DNA of 64,000 nt from Pirellulales bacterium (GTDB lineage Bacteria; Planctomycetota; Planctomycetia; Pirellulales; PALSA-1355). Positions 24,360 through 55,336 of this stretch are shown here, piece by piece (position 1 is the first letter of the stretch; each line of letters begins with the position of its first letter). The position numbers were made by a program, and so were the translations under genes. The stretch covers positions 896,001 to 960,000 of the forward strand of contig CAVTBU010000006.1 in the NCBI GenBank assembly GCA_963733035.1. Direction: 5' to 3'. The notes below the pieces were generated by a model, which saw only the letters and a list, made by a program, of their open reading frames with translations, was not told the origin of the DNA and searched no databases.

Positions 24360-25622
24360 ATGCCCTGCTGTTTGTCGCGAGTCTCTCCAAACGTCGTCTT
24401 GTTGGCTTGCGTCGTCTCGGTATTCGCGAGCACGGTGTGTCGTGCTCAGACACCTCGCCAATGGGCGTCTGCTCGCGACTGGCTGGTCGAGACGGAATTG
24501 GCGGCCGCGGGCATCAAGGAGCCCACCGTGCTGGCCGCGATGCGTGAGGTTCCTCGGCACGAGTTTGTTCCCGCCGACTTGAGGCCTTACGCCTACTTGG
24601 ACACGACTTTGCCGATTGGCGAGGGTCAGACGATTTCTCCCCCGTTCATCGTGGCTTGGATGACCGAGCAACTCGAGCCGCAGCCGACCGACCGCGTGCT
24701 CGAAATTGGCACCGGCAGCGGCTATCAGGCCGCGGTGTTGAGCCGACTGGTGAAGGACGTCTATACGATCGAGATTCACGAGCCGCTCGCCAAGAGGGCC
24801 GAGCAAGCCTTGAGACGCGTCGGCTATGGGAACGTTCACACTCGATGCGGCGACGGTTTTCGCGGCTGGCCTGAAGCGGCGCCGTTCGACAAGATCATCG
24901 TTACTTGTTCACCCGAAAAAGTGCCCGCCCCGCTGGCCGAGCAATTGCGAGAGGGGGGGCGGATGCTAATCCCTGTCGGTGAAAGCTTTCAGCAGAATCT
25001 CTGCGTGCTGATCAAGCAACATGGCAAGTTGACATTGGCCGCCAAGAAACCCACGTACTTCGTACCGATGACCGGCAAGGCCGAGTCCTTCCGTAGCGAC
25101 GGCGAACTCGGACCCTTGACGCCGCTCGCCAACGGCGACTTTGACCAGGTGGTTGAGCCCGGGGTTCCGGCGGCCTGGTACTACGTCCGACAAGCAACGC
25201 TTGAGCCGGGCGGAGCCAGCGGCGGCCAAGGTCAATTCATTCGCTTCGACAACCGAGTGCCGGGCCGCCGGTCGCATGTGCTGCAATCGATCGGTGTCGA
25301 TGGCCGAAGCGTGTCGCAATTGACGGTCCGCACGTGGGTCAAAGCACGTGACATTGAGCCGACAAACAAGTCCGACCCGCGCGACGGCGGAAAGCTGTAT
25401 GTGTCGTTTTTTGACGCCGACCGGCAGACCGTGGGAGAGCAGATCGTCGGCCTGTGGCGGGGGAGTTTCGATTGGCGTCGCCAAAGCGGCGTGGTCAAAG
25501 TGCCTCCGACGGCGATGGGCGCCACGATCGCGGTGGGGCTGTTTGGCGCCACCGGTGAATTGTGCTGCGACGACATCGAAGTTCGCTCGGACCAGGTCCA
25601 GACGGCCGCGCGCCCTCGCTAG
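24360..25622 (+). CDS. pcm: Protein-L-isoaspartate O-methyltransferase with signal-like N-terminus and extra C-terminal domain
   Basis: VPRHEF, GQTISPP, VLEIGTGSGYQAAVL, APFDKIIVT, FVPMTG. Confidence 0.88.
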   Translation: MPCCLSRVSPNVVLLACVVSVFASTVCRAQTPRQWASARDWLVETELAAAGIKEPTVLAAMREVPRHEFVPADLRPYAYLDTTLPIGEGQTISPPFIVAWMTEQLEPQPTDRVLEIGTGSGYQAAVLSRLVKDVYTIEIHEPLAKRAEQALRRVGYGNVHTRCGDGFRGWPEAAPFDKIIVTCSPEKVPAPLAEQLREGGRMLIPVGESFQQNLCVLIKQHGKLTLAAKKPTYFVPMTGKAESFRSDGELGPLTPLANGDFDQVVEPGVPAAWYYVRQATLEPGGASGGQGQFIRFDNRVPGRRSHVLQSIGVDGRSVSQLTVRTWVKARDIEPTNKSDPRDGGKLYVSFFDADRQTVGEQIVGLWRGSFDWRRQSGVVKVPPTAMGATIAVGLFGATGELCCDDIEVRSDQVQTAARPR

Positions 25623-25771
25623 CAGACCGTCGACGAATTCGACGGGCTGCGTCATCGCATGGATGCGATGCCAAAATAGCGACGTAGGTCGTTATTTTGC
25701 GGGCCGGGCGGAGCTTTGCTTCGCACTTGGCGAGGTTGAAAAATGCCACGACGGCATTTTTCAACTGGCTG
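25623..25771. mobile_element. 149 bp MITE-like element, copy 1 (inverted relative to copies 2 and 3)
   Basis: Near-identical to 41869-42017 and 54854-55003; imperfect terminal inverted repeats; CTAG on both sides (25619-22, 25772-75). Confidence 0.8.
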
Positions 25772-26635
25772 CTAGCGCAAGGGCGAATGATCGGACGACC
25801 AGCTCTTAACCGCGAGCGTGGGGTGCCCTTCGCGGATCTTGACCGAGAAGTCGGGGCTGTCGCGATAGACATAGGCGACGTCGTTAATTCTGGCACCCTG
25901 CCTGGTGCGCTGGAAGTTCTCGTCGACCTTGATCAGTTTCAGTTGGTATGCGAGTTGATCTGAATACGCCGGGAACAACACCTGGTAGGTGTACGGTACT
26001 TTGCTCGGGGCAATCTCGTTGATGTGCCGCACGATATTGGTCGTGCAATTGTTCGTGATCAGGTTGTAGTCTTCGGGCTCGCGGCTGAGTTTGTTGGCCC
26101 GCCGCATCATGCTGGTGAAGAGTTGCTGCATTTGAGCCCGCGAGGCCTGGGCTCGATACATGTAGACGTCGGACTTCCAGTAGATGGAGCGGAGCTCGAT
26201 CAGATCGCGTTCGTCGCCAACGACGTACATCAGTTCGGTAGGCTTCATCAGACTTTTGGCGAGGGCAAAATCTTCACCGGCCCTGCGGCGTACTTCGACG
26301 CTGACCGCCACGTAGTCTCGGCCATCAAAGCCGAAGCTGAGGAACGTGTGAGCTCCGCCCGGCACATCGTCGAACGGCACGACAATGAAGTCGACCGAGT
26401 CGAGCTTCTCCAGGTCGAAGGTTTTGTCATAGTGGCGCACCGTGTAATCGTCGGCTGAACGGTACTTGGTATTGCGAATGTTGTGGATGGTGACTTGATT
26501 GCCGGAGAAGTCGGCAGTCGGCAGCACGGCCTGGTTGGGAGACCACTGGCTTTGCGCGCCTTTGCAGCCCAGCGCGCAAATCGACAGCATTGCGCAGACG
26601 AAGACGGCTCGCGTTTGGAAACGCTGTAGTTGCAT
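25772..26635 (-). CDS. DUF4105 / Lnb N-terminal-like domain lipoprotein
   Basis: AHTFLSFGF, SVEVRR, YNLITNNCTTN motifs; LGC lipobox. Confidence 0.8.
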   Translation of the reverse strand: MQLQRFQTRAVFVCAMLSICALGCKGAQSQWSPNQAVLPTADFSGNQVTIHNIRNTKYRSADDYTVRHYDKTFDLEKLDSVDFIVVPFDDVPGGAHTFLSFGFDGRDYVAVSVEVRRRAGEDFALAKSLMKPTELMYVVGDERDLIELRSIYWKSDVYMYRAQASRAQMQQLFTSMMRRANKLSREPEDYNLITNNCTTNIVRHINEIAPSKVPYTYQVLFPAYSDQLAYQLKLIKVDENFQRTRQGARINDVAYVYRDSPDFSVKIREGHPTLAVKSWSSDHSPLR

Positions 26636-37127: not shown

Positions 37128-40088
37128 CTAGAATTGTTTTGCCTTATGAAGCCAAACACGGTATTTGTGCTCGATCTGTGCGTCGTCTGCCTCGGACAAT
37201 CGATCGACCCTATCGGCAAGCCGCGTAGAGGCATCAAGGGCATCGGACGCTCGAAATGGAGAAGTGTTTCTCCATTTCGCGACCGCCCGTCGAAAGCAAA
37301 TGTACGCGGCTGTCGGTTCCTGCTTTCGCTCTAGCAGCTCACCAAGCCAATATGAAATCCACCCAAGGTTCATACAAACCGCTTGGCTTTCATACTCAAG
37401 CAGCCAAGCTGACTTCAAGAGGCAATGCAGAGCATCGTCGTCCTTGCTCATAAAAAACAAGGTTCGACCAATATTGCCATAAAAGTGACCGTGCCGAGAG
37501 GTGTCGATCAGCGACGGGTTGACCACATCATTTAAGTCGGCTCCATGAAGGAAGTACTTCAATGCGCGTTCGGTCTCGCCTGAATCACGCTGGGCGAGAG
37601 CCAAATCGTGTGCGCAGTCATGCCGGGTATCAATATTGCCGGACGATTTCAAGTCGACGCCGCGCTGGCCCCATTCCTTCGCGAGCTCCATCTCCTGCCT
37701 GCTCCAATAGAAGTAGGCTCGTAAACGACAGATGCATACGTATCGGGCTGTGGCGCCACCTGCAGTTTTCGAAAACTGAATTAGCTGCGCCTCTGCGTCG
37801 TCAAATCTGCCGAGTTGAGACAACACTTCTATAAGGCGTGCATACGTGTTCTCGAAGGTTGGCGATTCTATTGTCGCAGAATCATTCCAGTCACAGATTG
37901 CGAGAACTCCACATGCGACTCGGACAAAGTCCTCCGAAAAGCCGCTCGATAGGAGAGCCTCACTGGCTTCATCCAGCACGACGAGCCCTCGACGATAGTC
38001 CCTACTGTTGATTAGTAATTCTACTTTATCTGTCCATTTGTGAAGTGTGTCGAAAGTAGCTGTGCGCTGCAGACTCGGGCGAAGCTTTACTATGATGCGA
38101 TCTAGCCAGACCATGATTGCTGTGATATAGCGATCGCGTTCGTTATTCGAGAACCGCTGTCGAATAAACTCCCGCACCAATGGATGCAGCTCAATTGTGT
38201 CTGAGCCAGTATGCGGAGTTTTTACTACAACCAAATCGAGCGTCTTGAGGCGTCCGAGTGTACTGCGAAACTGGTTGCGAGAGAATTCGCAGTCTACGAC
38301 CTCCTGGATATGCTTTTCAGTTTCCGGCCGCACAAGTTCCGCCAAATACCGCAACAGTTTCTGTTGTTTCGGCACCAGCGTCCTCCATACTTCTTGTAGC
38401 ATCGCAGTCGGTAGGCCCTCCGCTTTGCCGTCTTTGATCCGAGCGATCAACACAGGAACTTTGACGCGCTTGGAAAGGATCTGATTTGCGATCAATCCAA
38501 TCCATAGAGGGTGGCCTTGCAGTAGCGCATGCAGCTCTTCCAGATCGCCATCGCTTACCGTGACTCCTCGCGCCCTTAGAAGTTCACGCGCTTCGGCGAG
38601 TGAGAGCCCTTTCAACTCGATTTGCAAAAATGTGGGCCTATCGTATCTAAGCTTCGGACGGCAGGTGAATATGCAGCGCGATGAGCCCGGTGTCTTAAGC
38701 GCACCCTGAATCAGATCGTGCATGCCCCTAGCCGCTTGAGAAGTGTTTATATCCACATATTGGTCGATATTGTCGAATACAAATAGCCCTCGCACTGATT
38801 GCGACAAATTCAAGAACAGTCGAACGACAGACTCGATGCGCTCACCACTCAGGTCAGAGGCCCTGCTTCGGCCACCAGTTAGTCGCTCGATGATACGCAC
38901 AAGATGTGTGTGAAGCGTATTATCCTGTTCTTTACAGTCGCGCCAGTCAACTATGTCGACTTGAGCAGTTGTAGCTTCAAGGTACTTAGCAACTAATGTC
39001 GATTTGCCCTGGCCACCGATCCCTGTTATCGCAATGACTTTGGCGTTTGGATCACTCAGGAGTATCAGCTCGTCAGTGCGGCCCACCCACGTTCCGGTCG
39101 GAGGAGGGGTGTCACAAGTGTCGTCAAATGGTTCGTCAATAGATTTCGGCGCCGGAACAATCGGTGAGCGATCAAGCGCCGCTACTACCGTCATTGGACC
39201 TAGTACCGTTGGTTCCGACGAGGCAACGATTTGACTGAGTTCGTCAATGACTTTGAGAAGTGGTTGTCCATAGTCTGCGAATGGAATGAGCTCAACGTTG
39301 AGTAGGCGAGCTTCACGCGCTACATCGAGGTGGTCCTTATGAATTAGGGCATAATGTGGCCCATTGGCTCCGGCAAAAACGTCGTGTACAGCCCTAAGGG
39401 TCATACCGAATTTAGGATCTGCGAAACCGAAGCCCACAAACAAAAGAGAATGGCTGGTCAAAAGAGAACGCAGAGAATGGAGGGCGGCACCATAGACGGC
39501 TTTCGTCGCGTCGGAAGGGTACAATTGATTGTAGCCATCTGGCGTCAAAATAAGCTTGGCGGAGTCGCTAATCATTCCATGCAGGTGCCAGACAACTGGC
39601 CGTGATAATCCGGACCTCATCATTGCCGCTTGTTCGGCCGGGGACTCGATGTTCCAAGCATGTAAGTCATCCTGCTGGTCGCTTGCCCAGGCGAGGACTC
39701 GATCGTAGTTGGTTGTAACTACTAGGTTGCTCCCGAGTGTCCAAAGTCGTCGAGCAAGGGCAAGGCTATCGTCCGCTGCGGCCGAACGCGGGTGGTCAAG
39801 TTGATCGCTCAGAAGCGTGTACCAGTGTGGCCCGAGCGCTTCTTTCGCGTGCCTTGCCGCCTGCAGGAAATCGGGCTTATCAATTGTTATTAGGCTGCGA
39901 ACGAGCGTCCCATAAATTGGTTTGTTTTCCTGATCTAGCCGTTGTGCGGCAAGCGTGAGCAATTCAATCCAACTAGGAAACAGGGGAGTGGCGGTATCTC
40001 GCTTCGTGACGGCTCTTGATACGCCCGCGCCAACGAAAGGCACGATCTTTCGAGATTGCAAGAGCTTTATCAGTGTAGCGGGATACAT
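37128..40088 (-). CDS. SIR2-like + STAND/NB-ARC NTPase + TPR-like protein (Avs/NLR-like)
   Basis: FVGAGVS, TTNYD, HLHG, FVGFGFADP (SIR2); GIGGQGKST, FVFDNID, GHPL, LHPLVREF (STAND); helical C-terminus. Confidence 0.85.
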   Translation of the reverse strand: MYPATLIKLLQSRKIVPFVGAGVSRAVTKRDTATPLFPSWIELLTLAAQRLDQENKPIYGTLVRSLITIDKPDFLQAARHAKEALGPHWYTLLSDQLDHPRSAAADDSLALARRLWTLGSNLVVTTNYDRVLAWASDQQDDLHAWNIESPAEQAAMMRSGLSRPVVWHLHGMISDSAKLILTPDGYNQLYPSDATKAVYGAALHSLRSLLTSHSLLFVGFGFADPKFGMTLRAVHDVFAGANGPHYALIHKDHLDVAREARLLNVELIPFADYGQPLLKVIDELSQIVASSEPTVLGPMTVVAALDRSPIVPAPKSIDEPFDDTCDTPPPTGTWVGRTDELILLSDPNAKVIAITGIGGQGKSTLVAKYLEATTAQVDIVDWRDCKEQDNTLHTHLVRIIERLTGGRSRASDLSGERIESVVRLFLNLSQSVRGLFVFDNIDQYVDINTSQAARGMHDLIQGALKTPGSSRCIFTCRPKLRYDRPTFLQIELKGLSLAEARELLRARGVTVSDGDLEELHALLQGHPLWIGLIANQILSKRVKVPVLIARIKDGKAEGLPTAMLQEVWRTLVPKQQKLLRYLAELVRPETEKHIQEVVDCEFSRNQFRSTLGRLKTLDLVVVKTPHTGSDTIELHPLVREFIRQRFSNNERDRYITAIMVWLDRIIVKLRPSLQRTATFDTLHKWTDKVELLINSRDYRRGLVVLDEASEALLSSGFSEDFVRVACGVLAICDWNDSATIESPTFENTYARLIEVLSQLGRFDDAEAQLIQFSKTAGGATARYVCICRLRAYFYWSRQEMELAKEWGQRGVDLKSSGNIDTRHDCAHDLALAQRDSGETERALKYFLHGADLNDVVNPSLIDTSRHGHFYGNIGRTLFFMSKDDDALHCLLKSAWLLEYESQAVCMNLGWISYWLGELLERKQEPTAAYICFRRAVAKWRNTSPFRASDALDASTRLADRVDRLSEADDAQIEHKYRVWLHKAKQF

Positions 40089-40793: not shown

Positions 40794-41868
40794 ATGCCTA
40801 CGACCATTTACCGTCCTGCATCGCAACCGCGCGGCGTGCGCCGCGTAACTCCCTCGGTGGTCGATCCGGCCACCGCCGAGCCGTTTACGCTCGAGCAAGA
40901 GCTCAAGCCGTTTGGGGCCTGGGTGGGAGATCCGATTTGGGTGCCCCCCAAGGACGTGAGCAAAGACCTGGCCCAGACCATGCTGCACGAGACGCGGCCG
41001 TTTGCCGCGCCGGAGAAGCGCTGGCAGGCGGTCGTCAAGAAACATCGCGGCGAGTTCACCCAGGTGCGCGAGCTCGATCTGTTTCAGGCATCGATTCGAC
41101 TGCCGAAAGGCAGGTTCTTTGTCACCGTGACCGAGCAAAAGAACTTCGACAAGATTACCGATCCGATACCCGACTGCGTGCAAACCCGGCTGGACGAGTT
41201 TTTGAGCGGGCCGGGCCAGGAGCGGGGCGTGAAGGTGTATTACCTCAAGCCGCTGTGCGTGGAGATGGGGGACGAGCTGATTTTGACCTCGCGCGAGGAC
41301 CTGACCGCCGCGATCACCAAGATCCAGGACGAAGTGTTTGCCGAGTATCGCCGGCGAGCCCCCTGGCACCGGACGCTGCAAGCCGTGGCGGGGACGGCGA
41401 ACCTGGCTTTGACGCTTCCTCGCGCGGTGATGCGGATTGCGATCGATCGCAAACAGCGAGCCCTCGACGCGATGCAGGCGCGGCTCGAATTCGAACGCCG
41501 CAAGCTGGCCTTGCGCAGCGCCCACGCCTATTGCAAGCATCGCACATCGGGCTGCACGTTCGACGAGATGCTGGAGCTGACCAACCCGCTCAAGCGCACC
41601 GACGTGATCGATCAATACTGCACCGAGCAGGAGCTTTCGCGGGCGCAGTGCGCAGTTGCTGCATATCGCGGCCGGAACGCTGCCGTGGTTCGTCGGGATG
41701 TCGATTACGTTCGGGGGCTATATATCGACGCTGGCGGCAATTTGTCTGTCGCCGCCCGTGCTGGTTTGCGACCCGGCCTTCGTCGCCGAAATGCCAGGCG
41801 CGCGGGGCATGCTGCTGAAGATCGGCCACTTCGACGAAGTGGGTGGCGTGACGCACGTCGAGATTTAA
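40794..41868 (+). CDS. Hypothetical protein; apparent frameshift near 41650
   Basis: GGAGA RBS, GC3-rich codons; C-terminal part continues in ORF 41656-41868, ending at the TAA next to the MITE. Confidence 0.6.
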
Positions 41869-42017
41869 CAGCCAGTTGAAAAATGCCGTCGTGGCATTTT
41901 TCAACCTCGCCAAGTGCGAAGCAAAGCTCCGCACGGCTCGCAAAATAACGACTTACGTCGCTATTTTGGCATCGCATCCATGCGATGACGCAGCCCGCCG
42001 AATTCTTCAACGGCCTG
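41869..42017. mobile_element. 149 bp MITE-like element, copy 2
   Basis: CAGCCAGTTGAAAAA...TTCTTCAACGGCCTG; flanks TTAA / CTGG. Confidence 0.8.
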
Positions 42018-42127
42018 CTGGCGCAGCCATTGGAAGCTATTGGAAGGGGAGGGCGACGCGTGCGCGGTTGACGCGATGCGCTTCGCCGACGGTTGGCGAC
42101 GCTGTTGGTGCGCCGCGGCGAAGGGAC

Positions 42128-45613: not shown

Positions 45614-45789
45614 GGCAGTCGATTCTTGGTCTGGAAAGCTGGTGGCGTGAAGCCCTGCAAGGTAGCACGGCGGGGGCGATTTTTCCAGGCGGGGGTGGGA
45701 GGGGGTGGTGTCCCAACAGTGCGTTGCTGGCCGGTGGGAACCCGAAAAGCCGCCCCTCGGGTTGGGAGGGGTGAGTCATGAATAGGGAG

Positions 45790-46635
45790 TCAGGGAAACT
45801 CAGGCGCGAAACTCTCAACAATATTGCGAACGTGTGCGGCAATCTTTCCAAGTGTCGAGATGACTGGGAGTCGTTCTACTGCGCTGCACCCATGTCCGAA
45901 TTGCACCTCCGGCAGCACGTGAATTTGCACCTGCACGTCCTCTGGAGAAGCGGCGTCAATCTCGGCGACCTGAGTGCCATTATCAAGGGGGCGACCGCTG
46001 AAAAGTTTGGTGGTAGGCGCAGACATGACCCGAAATCGTCTGCCGCCGATTACATGGGTTCCTACTGGGCCCTTCAAGATGGCAGTATTTGCACGGACAG
46101 CAATGGCAAAGAGGACGAGGAGTCTGTGCTTGTCGGTGTTGTTGAGCGAATGAAGAAGCCACAGCAGGTTTTGCCGGTTTCCGTTTCCGCGCTTATATGG
46201 CTGCAATCTCTCAATAGGTGCTACAAATCGACCAAGCGGCTTGATCCTCGCGGTGTTTCTGTCAAATCTGTTTTTTCGTTTTGTACTGTGAGGGCCACGA
46301 AGAAAGATCGGGAACATGACTTGACCACAAATACCTTCGATGTCTCCGTGCCCAGCATTGAGGCAAGCCAGTTGGCAGGCTAAGCCGTCGAGGGTGGATC
46401 GCAGATTATGGGCGATCATCCCGGCGAGAATTGCGAAATCGGGCGGGATGGATGGAACATCTCGAAGTATAGCGTCGCACTTTCCTGTCTGGATATTCTG
46501 CTCGATGGAGACTCTGTGAGGGCGTTCCTTGAAGAATCGCTTGACGCCACTTTCGAGCGTTTGGATGTAGTCTTCTGTGACGCGAATTCTAGCCAAGGGG
46601 CCGTCCAATGAGGGTGTCACGGGTGTTGGTGTCAT
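45790..46635 (-). CDS. Hypothetical protein, AT-richer, possibly HEPN-like
   Basis: HNLRSTLD and LNNTDKHR motifs. Confidence 0.65.
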   Translation of the reverse strand: MTPTPVTPSLDGPLARIRVTEDYIQTLESGVKRFFKERPHRVSIEQNIQTGKCDAILRDVPSIPPDFAILAGMIAHNLRSTLDGLACQLACLNAGHGDIEGICGQVMFPIFLRGPHSTKRKNRFDRNTARIKPLGRFVAPIERLQPYKRGNGNRQNLLWLLHSLNNTDKHRLLVLFAIAVRANTAILKGPVGTHVIGGRRFRVMSAPTTKLFSGRPLDNGTQVAEIDAASPEDVQVQIHVLPEVQFGHGCSAVERLPVISTLGKIAAHVRNIVESFAPEFP

Positions 46636-46706
46636 TTACTTCGCCCCGCGCACGCAGTTGGCACAGGAGTTTCGGGTCTCACCTGATGGGAGCTCGACGA
46701 CAGCAG

Positions 46707-47246
46707 CTATATGGACGGGGTTAGCTTCGCAATAGCCTTCCCAACGTCAATGTCCCATTTCGGTCGCTCGTTGAGGATGAGATCATGAACCACGCGGATC
46801 AGAAGACTAATGCCGTGGTTTATTCCACGCTTTACTCGCCATTTTTTCTTCAGATGGCCCTCGTAGCTATAGCGTGCATCAACAAACAGGTCCTCCGCTC
46901 GTTTAAGGATCGTTTTAATATCAAGCCTATAGCCCAGGCGCTGCGTCACGCGGTACAAGTCGTCATTAAGGACCTTCTCAGCGAGCATTCCTTTAATCTG
47001 CTTCTTGTCAGCCTTATCCATGCCCTTCCAGGAGAGTTGTATTTGGTGTCCGTACGCCGATCCCTTTCGCCCTCGAAGCTCGTGCAGGCACTTAAAGTGA
47101 AGCTCCAAGGCAAAGGCCTCTAGTGAGTATGCAAGTGACTTATAGCCGTTTCTGCCAAGTAGCGCAGCGGTCTTCCAGCTAAATGTGGCGTCAACAAAGA
47201 CGTCGAATGGTTTTGGTTGCTTCTTTTTAGCCTTTTTCTTTGCCAT
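46707..47246 (-). CDS. HEPN-like hypothetical protein
   Basis: AFALELHFK...GHQI...DARY pattern typical of HEPN domains. Confidence 0.55.
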   Translation of the reverse strand: MAKKKAKKKQPKPFDVFVDATFSWKTAALLGRNGYKSLAYSLEAFALELHFKCLHELRGRKGSAYGHQIQLSWKGMDKADKKQIKGMLAEKVLNDDLYRVTQRLGYRLDIKTILKRAEDLFVDARYSYEGHLKKKWRVKRGINHGISLLIRVVHDLILNERPKWDIDVGKAIAKLTPSI

Positions 47247-47334: not shown

Positions 47335-47577
47335 CTATGCCTGAGGTGGTTGACCGTCCAGCTCGGCCGGGCGTCGGTAGAGCGCCGCGAAGTCCGGCGT
47401 TCTGGTGCCCTGCCGATTCACCAACACGCTCATCCACTGAAACTGCTCACGCGCCTTTCGGCGTTTCAGGAAAGCCTCGCGGTTCCGTTTCAATTCCTCT
47501 GGCGTAGCGCGGCGACCAGCGCGCAGCTCGTGGGCTCGCACTAGGGACTCCCATGCTTTTCGATCACCCTCGTTCAT
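47335..47577 (-). CDS. Cassette ORF G, 80 aa basic hypothetical protein
   Basis: ATG 8 nt after TAGAAT of repeat R6. Confidence 0.5.
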   Translation of the reverse strand: MNEGDRKAWESLVRAHELRAGRRATPEELKRNREAFLKRRKAREQFQWMSVLVNRQGTRTPDFAALYRRPAELDGQPPQA

Positions 47578-47624
47578 GCCAGCCGATTCTACCGCGGGTT
47601 GTGGCCTAGGAGCGAGTTGGTCGG
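47578..47624 (-). repeat. Cassette module R6 (lacks hairpin)
   Basis: minus strand CCGACCAACTCGCTCCTAGGCCACAACCCGCGGTAGAATCGGCTGGC-ATG. Confidence 0.75.
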
Positions 47625-47633
47625 CTGGATAGG

Positions 47634-47945
47634 TCAACGCCACCAAACATTCAAGACCCAAAGCGAAAGGCCGTTCAAAATAATCGCGAAGAATATCACG
47701 GCCAGTGACTGCTGGCGTTTAAGCCGAATGCCAGCTGCGATAAAGGGAACTTGGACGAGGATGAATACTGCCCCTCCCCAGAGACCAACCCCCAGCGGCC
47801 GCCTGGTCAGATTTGCCGCGACCAAGTACCACATGAGTCCTATGCAGGCTGCAAGCACGACACTGCCCAGCAATAGGTTCCTTGGCGAGAGCGACCACGG
47901 TGTCTCATCGCCTGGGGCCGGTGACCGATATGGATTGTCGCTCAT
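47634..47945 (-). CDS. Cassette ORF F, 103 aa membrane protein (about 3 TM)
   Basis: MSDNPYRSP start; hydrophobic helices; ATG follows repeat R5. Confidence 0.75.
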   Translation of the reverse strand: MSDNPYRSPAPGDETPWSLSPRNLLLGSVVLAACIGLMWYLVAANLTRRPLGVGLWGGAVFILVQVPFIAAGIRLKRQQSLAVIFFAIILNGLSLWVLNVWWR

Positions 47946-47971
47946 GCCCCCATTCTACTGCGTGCCCTAGG
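47946..47971 (-). repeat. Cassette module R5 (short)
   Basis: minus strand CCTAGGGCACGCAGTAGAATGGGGGC-ATG. Confidence 0.7.
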
Positions 47972-48188
47972 ACTGTGGTGGTCGTGTGAATTGATCCGCG
48001 TTGAGGCGAGCCCAAATACCAAAGCCCAAGACCGCACCCGCCACAAAGCAACTGCCCAATAAGAGCAAGCCGCCGAGAAACCGCAGCTCGAACGCTGCCC
48101 AGACAGCCGCGAGCATCGCGAGACCGATTGCAATTGCTCGGCGGGCCGCCCGCCTAACTCGATCTTCGCTCAAGTCGCTGGTTCTCAT
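47967..48188 (-). CDS. Cassette ORF E, 73 aa membrane protein (2 TM)
   Basis: ATG follows repeat R4; hydrophobic hairpin. Confidence 0.65.
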   Translation of the reverse strand: MRTSDLSEDRVRRAARRAIAIGLAMLAAVWAAFELRFLGGLLLLGSCFVAGAVLGFGIWARLNADQFTRPPQS

Positions 48189-48265
48189 GCCCCCATTCTA
48201 CCGCGCATGAAAAAGCCCCGGCAGGGACGGGGCGGTTGTGGGTATCCTAGGAGTGAGTTGGTCGG
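48189..48265 (-). repeat. Cassette module R4 (full: CCGACCAACTC box + terminator + leaderless promoter)
   Basis: minus strand CCGACCAACTCACTCCTAGGATACCCACAACCGCCCCGTCCCTGCCGGGGCTTTTTCATGCGCGGTAGAATGGGGGC-ATG. Confidence 0.85.
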
Positions 48266-48280
48266 GGGGCGGGCGCCGTC

Positions 48281-48400
48281 TCACGGTCGTCGGCCGCGAG
48301 TGGAGACGGCAACTAGGAGCACGATCCCGATAACCGCTGCCACGAGTAGGGCTATCGCGCCTCCGCCGATATTGCCCGATGCTGATCCAAATTCGTACAT
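48281..48400 (-). CDS. Cassette ORF D, 39 aa single-TM microprotein (not in the ORF track)
   Basis: Translated by hand: MYEFGSASGNIGGGAIALLVAAVIGIVLLVAVSTRGRRP*; ATG follows repeat R3. Confidence 0.7.
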   Translation of the reverse strand: MYEFGSASGNIGGGAIALLVAAVIGIVLLVAVSTRGRRP

Positions 48401-48443
48401 GCCCCCATTCTACCGCGCATGAAAAAGCCCCGGCACGGGGCCG
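48401..48443 (-). repeat. Cassette module R3 (terminator + leaderless promoter)
   Basis: minus strand GGCCCCGTGCCGGGGCTTTTTCATGCGCGGTAGAATGGGGGC-ATG. Confidence 0.85.
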
Positions 48444-48455
48444 GTGGACAGTGGC

Positions 48456-48758
48456 TTAAGAGGATGGTGGTCGGGGGCGGGAATGGGGAAAGTCGGCCTG
48501 CGACCGCAATCGACTGGCAAGGCGGATGAACCCCCATGCTCCTCCGCCGAAGATTGCCGACAAAAGCAGGCCGATAAAGAGGTGCTGGATACCGCTGAGA
48601 ATCGACCAGCGAATCGCAGCGACGATAAAAATGGCACTGGCCAATCCGAATGGGATCGCGACCAGGTAAAGCAGCAAGGCAATTGCCCACCTCCACGCGG
48701 GTACGGGCTGCCGTTCAACCGTGCTCGGTGGGCGGTATGGGTTTTCGGGGTCACTCAT
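48456..48758 (-). CDS. Cassette ORF C, 100 aa membrane protein (2 TM)
   Basis: MSDPENPYRPP start; ATG follows repeat R2. Confidence 0.75.
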   Translation of the reverse strand: MSDPENPYRPPSTVERQPVPAWRWAIALLLYLVAIPFGLASAIFIVAAIRWSILSGIQHLFIGLLLSAIFGGGAWGFIRLASRLRSQADFPHSRPRPPSS

Positions 48759-48836
48759 GCTGCCATTCTACCGCGCATGAAAACGCCCCGTTAGCGACGG
48801 GGCAGTTATGGGTGTCCTAAGGAATGAGTTGGTCGG
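48759..48836 (-). repeat. Cassette module R2 (full, diverged)
   Basis: minus strand CCGACCAACTCATTCCTTAGGACACCCATAACTGCCCCGTCGCTAACGGGGCGTTTTCATGCGCGGTAGAATGGCAGC-ATG. Confidence 0.85.
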
Positions 48837-48841
48837 ACTCG

Positions 48842-49180
48842 TCAATAGTCGGCGACCCAATTCTGATAGGTTCCAAGGCCAGTTCCCGCACTGCGAATTA
48901 GCTTACAGGAACGTGGGGCATCATGGCGGTGGACCGCGACGTAATAGACCACCGAGCCTTCGTATCCGCATTCAATCCCGTGGGCCTCTAGCAATTCCCT
49001 CATTGCCTTTGCCGTACCGGGATCGCCGACCGCGGCGATATCCACCCACTCCATGGCAGCTGAGTATCTCAACCACCCCCCGATGCAAATGGCTGAGATC
49101 GTGACGACCACGAACAGCGCCGATAGCGACCAGCGGTACCGGAAGCGCTTCGGGGTGGGAGTGGGGTCTGCTTCGTTCAC
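48842..49180 (-). CDS. Cassette ORF B, 112 aa membrane-anchored protein
   Basis: RYRWSLSALFVVVT N-terminal motif; GTGA overlap with ORF A. Confidence 0.7.
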   Translation of the reverse strand: MNEADPTPTPKRFRYRWSLSALFVVVTISAICIGGWLRYSAAMEWVDIAAVGDPGTAKAMRELLEAHGIECGYEGSVVYYVAVHRHDAPRSCKLIRSAGTGLGTYQNWVADY

Positions 49181-49461
49181 TTATCTGTCCTCTGGCGAGT
49201 TCCAACAAACCAAGCAAAGATGGCGATTACAAGTCCGCTTCTCCAGATGACGCCGATAATCGCGCCGCTGGCGGCTGTCCATCTCTTGCGTGCAATCTCG
49301 GCTTCAAATCCAACGTAGCCAAACCAGCAGTTGAGCGCAAGGACAACAAGGACCAGGGCAAAGACTCCCAATCCAAAGCGAGGCGAGCGCGATTTCTCGG
49401 CCAGCCTCCGGCACATTAGGCCCGCGGCTACGAACGGGAGCATGACTAGTATTTCGGTCAT
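49177..49461 (-). CDS. Cassette ORF A, 94 aa membrane protein (about 3 TM)
   Basis: ATG follows repeat R1; hydrophobic helices. Confidence 0.7.
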   Translation of the reverse strand: MTEILVMLPFVAAGLMCRRLAEKSRSPRFGLGVFALVLVVLALNCWFGYVGFEAEIARKRWTAASGAIIGVIWRSGLVIAIFAWFVGTRQRTDK

Positions 49462-49509
49462 GCCCCCATTCTACCGCGCATGAAAAAGCCCCGGCAGAGG
49501 ACACGGGCT
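49462..49509 (-). repeat. Cassette module R1 (terminator + leaderless promoter)
   Basis: minus strand AGCCCGTGTCCTCTGCCGGGGCTTTTTCATGCGCGGTAGAATGGGGGC-ATG. Confidence 0.85.
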
Positions 49510-49633
49510 CGCCGGACTGACCCGCGCGGATTCTCGCGTACCGCCCAACACATCGTGGTCGCGCGGGGCGGGGCCCGTGCGCGGAGCTCGCGGCGGACGA
49601 TTCGCTCGCGTTCCGGAAAAAAATCGGCGAATA

Positions 49634-49670
49634 TATATTGACGAACATCAATATAGATGATAATCTATAT
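49634..49670 (+). promoter_or_regulatory. Leaderless promoter and probable operator of the ArsR gene
   Basis: TTGACG-17 nt-TAATCT-6 nt-ATG; overlapping inverted repeats TATATTGA-6-TCAATATA and ATATAGAT-4-ATCTATAT. Confidence 0.7.
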
Positions 49671-49672
49671 AC

Positions 49673-54853: not shown

Positions 54854-55003
54854 CAGTTTTTTGAAAGATGCCGTCGTGGCATTTTTCAACCTCGCGAAGT
54901 GCGGAGCCAAGCTCCGCACCGCCCGCGAAATATCGACTTACGTCGGCTATTTCGTCATCGCATCCATGCGATGACGCCGCCCGTTGAATGCTTCAACCGG
55001 CCG
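54854..55003. mobile_element. 150 bp MITE-like element, copy 3, abutting the katG RBS
   Basis: Homologous to copies 1 and 2; CTAG at 54850-53 and 55004-07. Confidence 0.8.
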
Positions 55004-55336
55004 CTAGCGGCGTAATCTGTTGTGCAGCACGATGTTTATGAGTAATCGTATTTTAGCGGCCATTTAGGTTCGGTCGAGGTGGCCCAGAGGCCGACCCGAC
55101 ACGGGCGAGTTGATCGCTGTTGGGTTCGAGTTTCACGAAGTCCGATGGTTCGAATCGTACCGCCCGTCACGCGCGGCGACAACCTAGGCAGATGGGATCG
55201 CGGAGATGGGAGCGAGGCCCGAGGGACCAACTCGGTGCAGCATTTGGTTCGACGTCCGGCGGAGGTCGCCCTGGTCTGTTCGGAGAACCGTGACGTCGAA
55301 GTGACCGACGCAGCGGCGGAAAGCTTGGTAAGCGAC

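Follow-up and report, generated by a model that had tools for sequence, protein, structure and literature searches.

A row of small-ORF units in a Pirellulales genome is probably a fossil stack of transposon cargo cassettes

We analysed a stretch of 64,000 nucleotides (nt) from a Pirellulales bacterium (GenBank assembly GCA_963733035.1, contig CAVTBU010000006.1, positions 896,001 to 960,000; hereafter the window, whose own numbering is used for its positions). On the minus strand, at 47335-49509, seven small open reading frames (ORFs A-G, 39-112 amino acids (aa)) are parted by a repeated junction, which runs in the order box, GC hairpin with T-tract, CATGCGCGG-TAGAAT, 6-8 nt and ATG. Judged by its sequence, the box derives from the inverted repeat of an IS1-like transposon family that occurs in this bacterial family, and has since decayed. 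We consider it probable that the array is transposon-derived, a fossil head-to-tail stack of six right-end cargo units that hold the seven ORFs.

An earlier note on this DNA had described six modules (R1-R6), each in front of the ATG of a small ORF, and a seventh ORF joined to its neighbour. All six ATGs were found as stated, each closing its copy of the module and opening an ORF of 94, 100, 39, 73, 103 or 80 aa, and the remaining ORF (B, 112 aa) has a GTG start that shares bases with the stop of ORF A (GTGA). The features of the array are as follows.

49459..49502, minus strand: module R1; weak hairpin 49502-49488, T-tract, CATGCGCGG, TAGAAT 49473-49468, 6 nt, ATG 49461-49459; nhmmer E 1.2e-14
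49177..49461, minus strand: ORF A, 94 aa; two membrane-like windows; without homologue
48842..49180, minus strand: ORF B, 112 aa; GTG in the GTGA overlap; N-terminal RF..SL..LF..V anchor motif
48756..48837, minus strand: junction 2; box 48837-48812 (E 0.03), hairpin 48804-48784, T-tract, TAGAAT 48770-48765, ATG 48758-48756
48456..48758, minus strand: ORF C, 100 aa; N-terminal NPYRPP, two membrane-like windows, ends ..RPRPPSS-TAA within the box
48398..48475, minus strand: junction 3; box variant 48475-48448 in the CTTAAG form (E 4.9, weak), hairpin 48442-48426, TAGAAT 48412-48407, ATG 48400-48398
48281..48400, minus strand: ORF D, 39 aa; one membrane-like window, basic tail RGRRP
48186..48267, minus strand: junction 4, the best preserved; box 48267-48242 (E 0.001), hairpin 48233-48215, TAGAAT 48200-48195, ATG 48188-48186; nhmmer E 3.6e-15
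47967..48188, minus strand: ORF E, 73 aa; two membrane-like windows, ends ..TRPPQS-TAG within the box
47943..47988, minus strand: junction 5, truncated; box 47988-47962 (E 0.005) fused to TAGAAT 47957-47952, 6 nt, ATG 47945-47943; hairpin absent
47634..47945, minus strand: ORF F, 103 aa; N-terminal NPYRSP, three membrane-like windows
47575..47626, minus strand: junction 6, truncated; box 47626-47598 (E 0.04), CCGCGG-TAGAAT 47591-47586, 8 nt, ATG 47577-47575; hairpin absent
47335..47577, minus strand: ORF G, 80 aa; soluble, basic; terminates as ..QPPQA-TAG within a weak box; the remnant CCCGGCTTTTCACG (47334-47321) comes next

The junctions are unevenly complete. The hairpin with its T-tract is strong in R2, R3 and R4 and weak in R1 (five pairs), where a good 5′ arm is missing; R5 and R6 are truncated modules that have no hairpin and in which the box is fused to the -10 box. 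The anatomy given in the earlier note, with its spacing to the ATG (8 nt in R6, 6 nt in the other units), is thus confirmed apart from these small corrections at R1, R5 and R6. The 38 identical nt reported for R1, R3 and R4 were found. A 20-nt core, CGCGGTAGAATGGGGGCATG, occurs five times in the window with up to three mismatches, always on the minus strand and between 47943 and 49478, compared with 0.02 copies expected from shuffled sequence; none of 100 shuffles contained five. A consensus scan returned 10 terminator-like sites, against 3.2 +/- 1.7 in shuffles, and no sigma-70 -35/-10 pair.

The box, CCGACCA(A/C)C..CCT(T)AGG, lies after or overlaps the stops of ORFs B, C, D, E and F, and a weak copy ends ORF G. 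In C, E and G it forms the 3′ end of the coding sequence, supplying the last codons and the stop (..RPP(S/Q)(S/A)-stop), and in B, D and F it is located 3′ of the stop. The ORFs themselves show no convincing mutual homology (pairwise Smith-Waterman z <= 4.6), as had been claimed; C and F have a common N-terminal NPYR.P motif. One to three hydrophobic 19-aa windows were counted in six of the seven, which agrees with the earlier description of mostly membrane proteins. Antisense ORFs (MKKPR...MPPFYRA) were considered and rejected; the frame is open across the entire cassette in one unit only.

The identity of the box is given by complete elements elsewhere in the genome. This genome (6.6 Mb) is called G000 below, C3-C10 are its contigs, and G001, G002 and G003 are relatives of the same genus. 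Three segments of G000 are each bounded by two inverted boxes, with tips ..TAGGACACTACC, and by flanking 8-mers that are identical at eight of eight positions.

C5:1179095/1184417: 5.3-kb element, 8-bp duplication GAATCTCG
C5:1768206/1768878: 0.67-kb element, 8-bp duplication CGGATGCC, read along the cassette
C8:74032/77760: 3.7-kb element, 8-bp duplication CGAATTGC

The 5.3-kb segment is missing in G001, G002 and G003, where its flanks lie 117-141 nt apart, and the 0.67-kb segment is likewise missing in G001-G003. The 3.7-kb segment is missing in G001, with the flanks separated by 73 nt rather than 3835 nt. In all three duplication-bounded elements a module-driven small ORF takes the final gene position next to one tip, such that the module, the small ORF and the inverted repeat would together constitute a cargo cassette at one end of an intact element.

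Shorter and composite forms are also present. At C10:211887-211920 a 34-bp tip-to-tip element has two inverted tips 10 nt apart and flanking 8-mers that match at seven of eight positions; this could represent a footprint or else a minimal derivative. Within the window there is one further copy of the repeat.

45696..45770, minus strand: 59-nt mini-element (45704-45762) with one good inverted repeat, tip at 45704, and the direct repeat TGGGAGGG at 45696-45703 and 45763-45770

The mini-element has an internal 7-bp stem-loop and lies between yebC and a 281-aa ORF. A 1.1-kb group of three cassettes, two convergent and one further on, is found at C4:91228-92451 (L195:5729-6952) between a conserved gene and a tRNA gene, and is missing in G003 and G001. 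Facing box tips in this group form perfect hairpins (CACTACCC..GGGTAGTG), and the tRNA gene has a canonical TTGAAC-17-TATAAA promoter. One intact element holds a stack of two units, consisting of a 202-aa ORF, a decayed box, a hairpin and module, a 44-aa ORF and a working repeat. Since longer rows occur on soil contigs in addition to this two-unit element, stacking at the cargo end seems to be a habit of the transposon family.

The two larger elements, of 5.3 kb on C5 and 3.7 kb on C8, encode a 341-aa transposase (89% mutual identity), which scores 27.5 bits against Pfam DDE_Tnp_IS1 (PF03400; cut-off 24.1) and 32.3 against the NCBIfam IS1/IS1595 zinc domain (NF050000; cut-off 28). The second copy (C8:75252-76268; L194:3750-4784) contains one in-frame TGA and may be a pseudogene or recoded. 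Beside the transposase in each larger element lies a small divergent gene that looks ribbon-helix-helix-like and gave no family match. Transposase homologues were found in 27 of 33 family genomes, at 73-82% identity in other genera, and in none of the three same-genus relatives, a patchy spread that fits a mobile element. For 7 of the 27 module places, five of them in other genomes, a transposase homologue is encoded 0.7-1.6 kb upstream on the same strand. In a compact copy in G016, which belongs to another genus, the stop of the transposase ORF is the TAG of ..AAATAGGACACTACC, inside the repeat. A transposase stop lying in the repeat accounts for the in-frame stop in the box and for the alike ends of several of the small ORFs.

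The relationship between the array boxes and the transposon repeat was assessed with a model built from seven repeats on other contigs only. Across the 64 kb it matched four array boxes (E 0.001-0.04) and the repeat at 45704 (E 0.057), and gave weak matches at the ends of G and C. Apart from a single unrelated weak match, the matches are all on the minus strand and at ORF 3′ ends. Because a model built from outside the array recognises its boxes at this position, we take the array boxes to be homologues of the transposon repeat.

Each unit also looks self-expressing, as the earlier note proposed, in that it carries a terminator, a -10 box and an ATG at leaderless distance. We infer promoter activity, terminator activity and leaderless translation from the geometry of the sequence and from comparative counts. 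The GC hairpin and T-tract would stop transcription arriving from upstream, and the TAGAAT -10 box, 14 nt further on and without a -35, would drive each unit. Transcription usually starts about 7 nt from a -10 box, which matches the spacing observed here. Since the ATG follows the -10 box by 6-8 nt, the transcript would begin at or beside its A and would be a leaderless mRNA without a Shine-Dalgarno sequence, for which there is no room between TAGAAT and ATG. A G-rich 6-nt stretch accompanies the TAGAAT box at this predicted start. Every unit would accordingly be an insulated transcription unit with a small, usually membrane-like protein as its product, closed by the 28-34-nt box, which at times gives the last codons and the stop.

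The counts behind these predictions are genome-wide or wider. TAGAAT-N6-ATG occurs 32 times in this genome, against 5-14 times for spacers of 2-5 and 8-13 nt, and such sites also precede ordinary long ORFs of 338-742 aa; because the excess at spacer 6 is genome-wide and includes long ORFs, leaderless starts from a TAGAAT -10 box seem to be normal in this organism. Among 149 distinct module copies from all sources, 100 have an ATG or GTG 6-8 nt after the -10 box, where chance would give about 8%. A stem of at least 5 bp ending at the T-tract is present in 86 of 128 copies and in 14% of shuffles. Counted sequence by sequence, these 128 copies have 54 different pairs of hairpin arms, which indicates that the structure is kept while its sequence changes; RNAalifold run on the same copies returned zero consensus pairs, and loop lengths differ. 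Attenuator-like co-variation between the G-rich spacer and the hairpin arm was rejected, the spacer consensus being constant and the arms different.

The sequence CATGCGCGG beside the -10 box is kept across genera and is not part of this genome's ordinary TAGAAT promoters. This would be expected if the units were an old family of small membrane proteins that had arisen by duplication and divergence, forming a regulon with a selected promoter or operator and a selected 3′ end, and with no mobility. The NPYR.P start of ORFs C and F and a similar ..RPPQS-stop ending, common to C, E, G and two ORFs on other contigs, also point in this direction. Against it, cassette segments are insertions relative to the three same-genus genomes and carry target duplications, the same module and ORF (78% nt identity) stand at different loci in G000 and G001, and the module-linked ORFs include unrelated soluble proteins. 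We regard an immobile regulon as improbable.

Searching the 6.6-Mb genome with a profile of the module gave nine strong copies (E <= 1.4e-6) in addition to the truncated R5 and R6. Four of the nine are in the array and the others are on C8, C5 (two), C4 and C3. The C8 and C4 copies and one of those on C5 lead, through their terminal ATG, into small ORFs of membrane type (42-92 aa). The other copy on C5 has a 45-nt leader followed by an NPY-type ORF, and the one on C3 is a variant form whose spacer is longer. A selfish hairpin repeat resembling a repetitive extragenic palindrome (REP) or a miniature inverted-repeat transposable element (MITE), moved by a Y1 transposase of the REP-associated (RAYT) type and only incidentally a promoter, would account for the GC-rich palindromes of the module, and the genome does contain nine Y1_Tnp matches. 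However, there are only about 11 copies, all of them facing a downstream ORF, the ATG is phased, and none lies beside a Y1 gene, the nearest of which is 99 kb from the array. We judge this explanation very unlikely, and the view that the module is not a generic repeat stands.

Beyond this genome, a 19-mer, TTTTCATGCGCGGTAGAAT, was found with up to two mismatches in 8 of 33 family genomes and 4 of 15 genera, and its reversed control in none. When species-representative genomes were scanned for exact matches, with two positions left degenerate, 26 loci were obtained, 17 of them in metagenome-assembled genomes (MAGs) labelled Planctomycetota, Planctomycetia or Pirellulales; the nine in unrelated taxa are attributed to chance expectation. 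The same scan of metagenomes gave more than 127 stretches among the matches listed. Pirellulales genomes and soil metagenomes together contributed about 150 distinct copies. Ten of the 72 metagenome loci that matched the profile hold two or three copies. A look-alike in gut metagenomes (16 loci and one Burkholderiales-type MAG) proved to be one unrelated conserved locus and was left out of the counts. This locus (L045, L067, L071, L094, L108, L110, L114, L117, L120, L137 and others) belongs to another phylum and has the same 19-mer right after a terminator hairpin, and the gene behind it has a leader.

The small ORFs that follow the module are very diverse. Eighty-three distinct module-linked ORFs fell into 59 BLASTP clusters, the largest of which (19 members, including ORF B) has only a membrane-anchor motif, RFSLR.LL..T..A..LG, in common. 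Outside the array, ORF B has one homologue, in a metagenome, at 61% identity. Homologues of ORF G occur at 46-48% identity in two family genomes, amid small ORFs and with the box either behind them or fused to a TTAGAAT-N6-ATG start. ORFs A and F had zero homologues in a collection of 5.8 billion clusters, and an exhaustive search of 1.84 billion representative proteins with ORF F returned only two long repetitive proteins and no true homologue. Nothing above cut-off was obtained for the seven ORFs in Pfam, PADLOC or PHROGs, and the array had no match in Rfam at E up to 1; the anti-phage or envelope role suggested in the earlier note gains nothing from these searches, with zero matches in both PADLOC and PHROGs. 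A box model made from this genome's own boxes matched 3 of 65 ORF tails of other lineages, in which inspection of k-mers revealed a diverged form of the box. On a 4.8-kb soil contig (L065) and at other soil loci there are rows of at least 10 small ORFs with recurring ends, N-terminal M.FRKLRIAWSV.CGIACVLL and C-terminal RFSLRTLLIATTLVAV.LGLIV; these rows often use box-only junctions and a GAGGGG ribosome-binding site instead of the promoter module.

Comparison between relatives bears on how the cassettes move. The DNA of the array gave nothing beyond module-sized matches in 40 relatives. YebC, which is encoded beside it, is 76-78% identical in the three same-genus genomes, and synteny stops there. 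Taken with the insertion-like state of other cassettes relative to the same-genus genomes, this upholds the expectation that cassettes vary between relatives. In one public soil DNA run 7% of the sampled words were found, with contigs that span 48025-48427 only and show no joints; no RNA run was found that contains the stretch. Among all module-bearing loci only two pairs of related metagenome contigs were informative, and in both the contigs are 96-98% identical from the 5′ edge of the module onward and unrelated upstream. A further 19 pairs, alike on both sides, were duplicate records of 100% identity and uninformative.

A break at the module edge is what would be expected if the junctions were active and homologous recombination reshuffled the cassettes, in the manner proposed for the promoter-stem-loop (PeSL) cassettes of phages, the transposons having merely picked up one cassette. 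The 38 nt that are identical between junctions within the array, the constant box-to-hairpin spacing (0-4 nt across lineages) and the 59 clusters from 83 ORFs are in keeping with this explanation; lineage-specific hairpin arms suggest copying or conversion inside genomes, and the architecture parallels that of PeSLs (PMC2839356). However, the box has the hallmarks of a transposon end, with 8-bp duplications and inverted pairs around a transposase, and the breakpoint cases number two only. Compact copies, moreover, hold the stop codon of the transposase in the box, which argues that the box originated in the transposon rather than having been taken up by it. Recombination alone is therefore rather unlikely in our view. 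As the box corresponds to the inverted repeat of an IS1-like transposon with 8-bp duplications, transposition, beyond recombination at the module, would explain the spread of cassettes; the earlier proposal of recombination at the module agrees with the point at which similarity stops in two of two informative pairs, and falls short in that the box is a transposon end.

How a transposon-derived stack would have formed can be outlined. The stack would grow by insertion of elements beside the hairpins of earlier cassettes, and the inner transposase parts would then be removed by box-box or module-module recombination; by an alternative route, an outer repeat would be taken up as a new end. The units would stay individually expressed, and the identical junctions of 38-60 nt would be possible sites of gain, loss and exchange.

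Several observations weigh against the derivation of the array from transposon ends. All array boxes are in one orientation, without an inverted partner and without a target duplication, and their tips are decayed, the last 5-7 nt being changed (for example ..GGATACCCAC vs ..GGACACTACC); for these reasons the array looks immobile now. None of the 42 window ORFs scanned is a transposase, integrase or phage gene. The earlier note had likewise seen no transposase, which is correct for the window and does not extend to the genome, where the enzyme is encoded twice. That enzyme scores 78.7 against the NCBIfam IS1 family (NF033558), under the cut-off of 100. Twenty of the 27 module places are not beside a transposase homologue, and G003 (three modules) and G002 (one module) have no such homologue. 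No inverted-tip pairs with duplications were found at the loci of other genomes, each covered to about 1.5 kb on either side. With respect to the module, about one third of the copies elsewhere lack the ATG phasing, at least 19 planctomycete-type copies stand before genes whose leaders measure 25-45 nt, and the constant spacing between box and hairpin equally fits copying of the whole junction in one piece. Finally, as ORFs A and F are without homologues, their coding status is unconfirmed by conservation.

A wider idea, which we put forward tentatively and hold to be possible at most, is that the IS1-like elements of soil Pirellulales carry an 'expression socket' at one end, in which a terminator is combined with a leaderless promoter, its ATG and, in the repeat, a stop, so that anything landing there would be expressed as a small protein. 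The elements and their stacks would then be a nursery and shuttle for orphan small membrane proteins, and the arrays an archive of captures. By supplying the start and stop of a gene as well as a leaderless promoter and a terminator, transposon ends offer a concrete and testable route of origin for orphan genes for small membrane proteins, which could be expressed immediately and spread through a phylum that has been little studied. For annotation, gene callers easily miss leaderless ORFs, and searching the protein collection with ORFs A and F did not even recover the ORFs themselves. The terminator-promoter unit of about 55 nt is compact and portable, and is a candidate genetic tool for planctomycetes, which have few. 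The array also advises caution, in that a repeated junction without a nearby recombinase may still be a transposon relic. Its main interest, these observations suggest, is a concrete route for the birth and spread of orphan small genes in soil planctomycetes.

The surroundings of the array are chromosomal, with genes for YebC, KatG, ECF sigma factors and ArsR. Directly downstream, on the same strand, 45790-47246 (minus strand, low GC of about 0.52) contains the 281-aa ORF mentioned above and a 179-aa ORF, neither of which matched Pfam, PADLOC or PHROGs. The leader of the 179-aa ORF is of the ordinary kind and includes an AGGA ribosome-binding site. At 37128-40088 on the minus strand, 7 kb from the array, a patch of low GC (0.49-0.54) encodes a 986-aa protein with SIR2, STAND NTPase and TPR parts, which is likely to be a defence gene because it matches LmuA/ThsA-type SIR2 models in PADLOC. 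An AT-rich segment with inverted repeats at 49625-49672 (TATATAGAT..ATCTATAT), directly upstream of the arsR-type gene, is probably the operator of that gene. The window also contains, at 41866-42025, 25617-25774 and 54861-55009, a dispersed repeat that is about 150 nt long and behaves like a MITE; its copies number about 16-20 in this genome (75-98% identity), whereas G001 has more than 40.

With tandem small, unrelated ORFs of unknown function, a low-GC patch adjoining them and a defence-type gene 7 kb away, the array might be taken for an integron array or a cluster of prophage morons. The best match to the integron-integrase model TIGR02249 in the whole genome scores 81 bits, against a cut-off of 265, in line with the integron-independence that had been claimed. 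The recombinase sought beside the array was not there, the nearest tyrosine recombinase (PF00589) on the contig being about 666 kb away. Thirteen local proteins gave zero PHROGs matches, and the module pattern occurred once in 2.9 million viral contigs, in a hairpin-less copy that is probably a chance match. We give an integron or prophage origin almost no credence.

Among known systems, the elements are closest to the IS1 family. Members of that family reportedly have ends of the form GGnnnTG and duplications of 8-9 bp; here the inverted repeats begin GGTAGTG, the target duplications are 8 bp, and the transposase combines a zinc-binding domain at its N-terminus with a match to the IS1 DDE model. 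The transposase-free short derivatives (0.67 kb, 59 nt and 34 nt) are likewise reminiscent of IS1 relatives and MITEs. The elements differ from IS1 in the fixed cargo of terminator, leaderless promoter and small ORF that reads into the repeat, in the divergent ribbon-helix-helix-like gene beside the transposase, and in the sub-cut-off NCBIfam score. We know of no IS1 stack described with six ends in one orientation and without a transposase.

Integron cassettes resemble the array in being tandem, small and mostly orphan ORFs with a repeated junction, whereas here intI was not found in the genome, each unit has its own promoter and the junction appears to come from the repeat of a DDE transposon. 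No attC-type site was recognised by eye, no attC model having been run, and the junction is a 6-8-bp hairpin with a T-tract and no GTTRRRY core. Putative mobile promoters are near-identical promoters before non-homologous genes within and between genomes (PMC3575422), and the module is like them in preceding non-homologous genes (59 clusters from 83 ORFs, 8 of 33 genomes). It differs in its carrier, which would be the end cassette of a transposon, and in that the promoter travels with a terminator and an ATG.

PeSLs of T4-type phages, which combine a stem-loop terminator and a promoter, are found in variable regions ahead of small ORFs whose function is unknown, and a role in modular shuffling has been proposed for them (PMC2839356; PMC4122927). 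The likeness lies in this composite motif, repeated before small ORFs. In contrast, the present array is in a bacterial chromosome and not a T4-type phage (zero PHROGs matches), its units have a -10 box for which the scan gave no -35 partner and leave no room for a Shine-Dalgarno sequence, the stem-loop is always upstream of the -10 box, and each unit has a transposon-end box. A limited literature search yielded no account of such planctomycete cassettes or of PeSL-like stacks in bacterial chromosomes. The array is best filed as transposon cargo cassettes with a PeSL-like junction of terminator and leaderless promoter.

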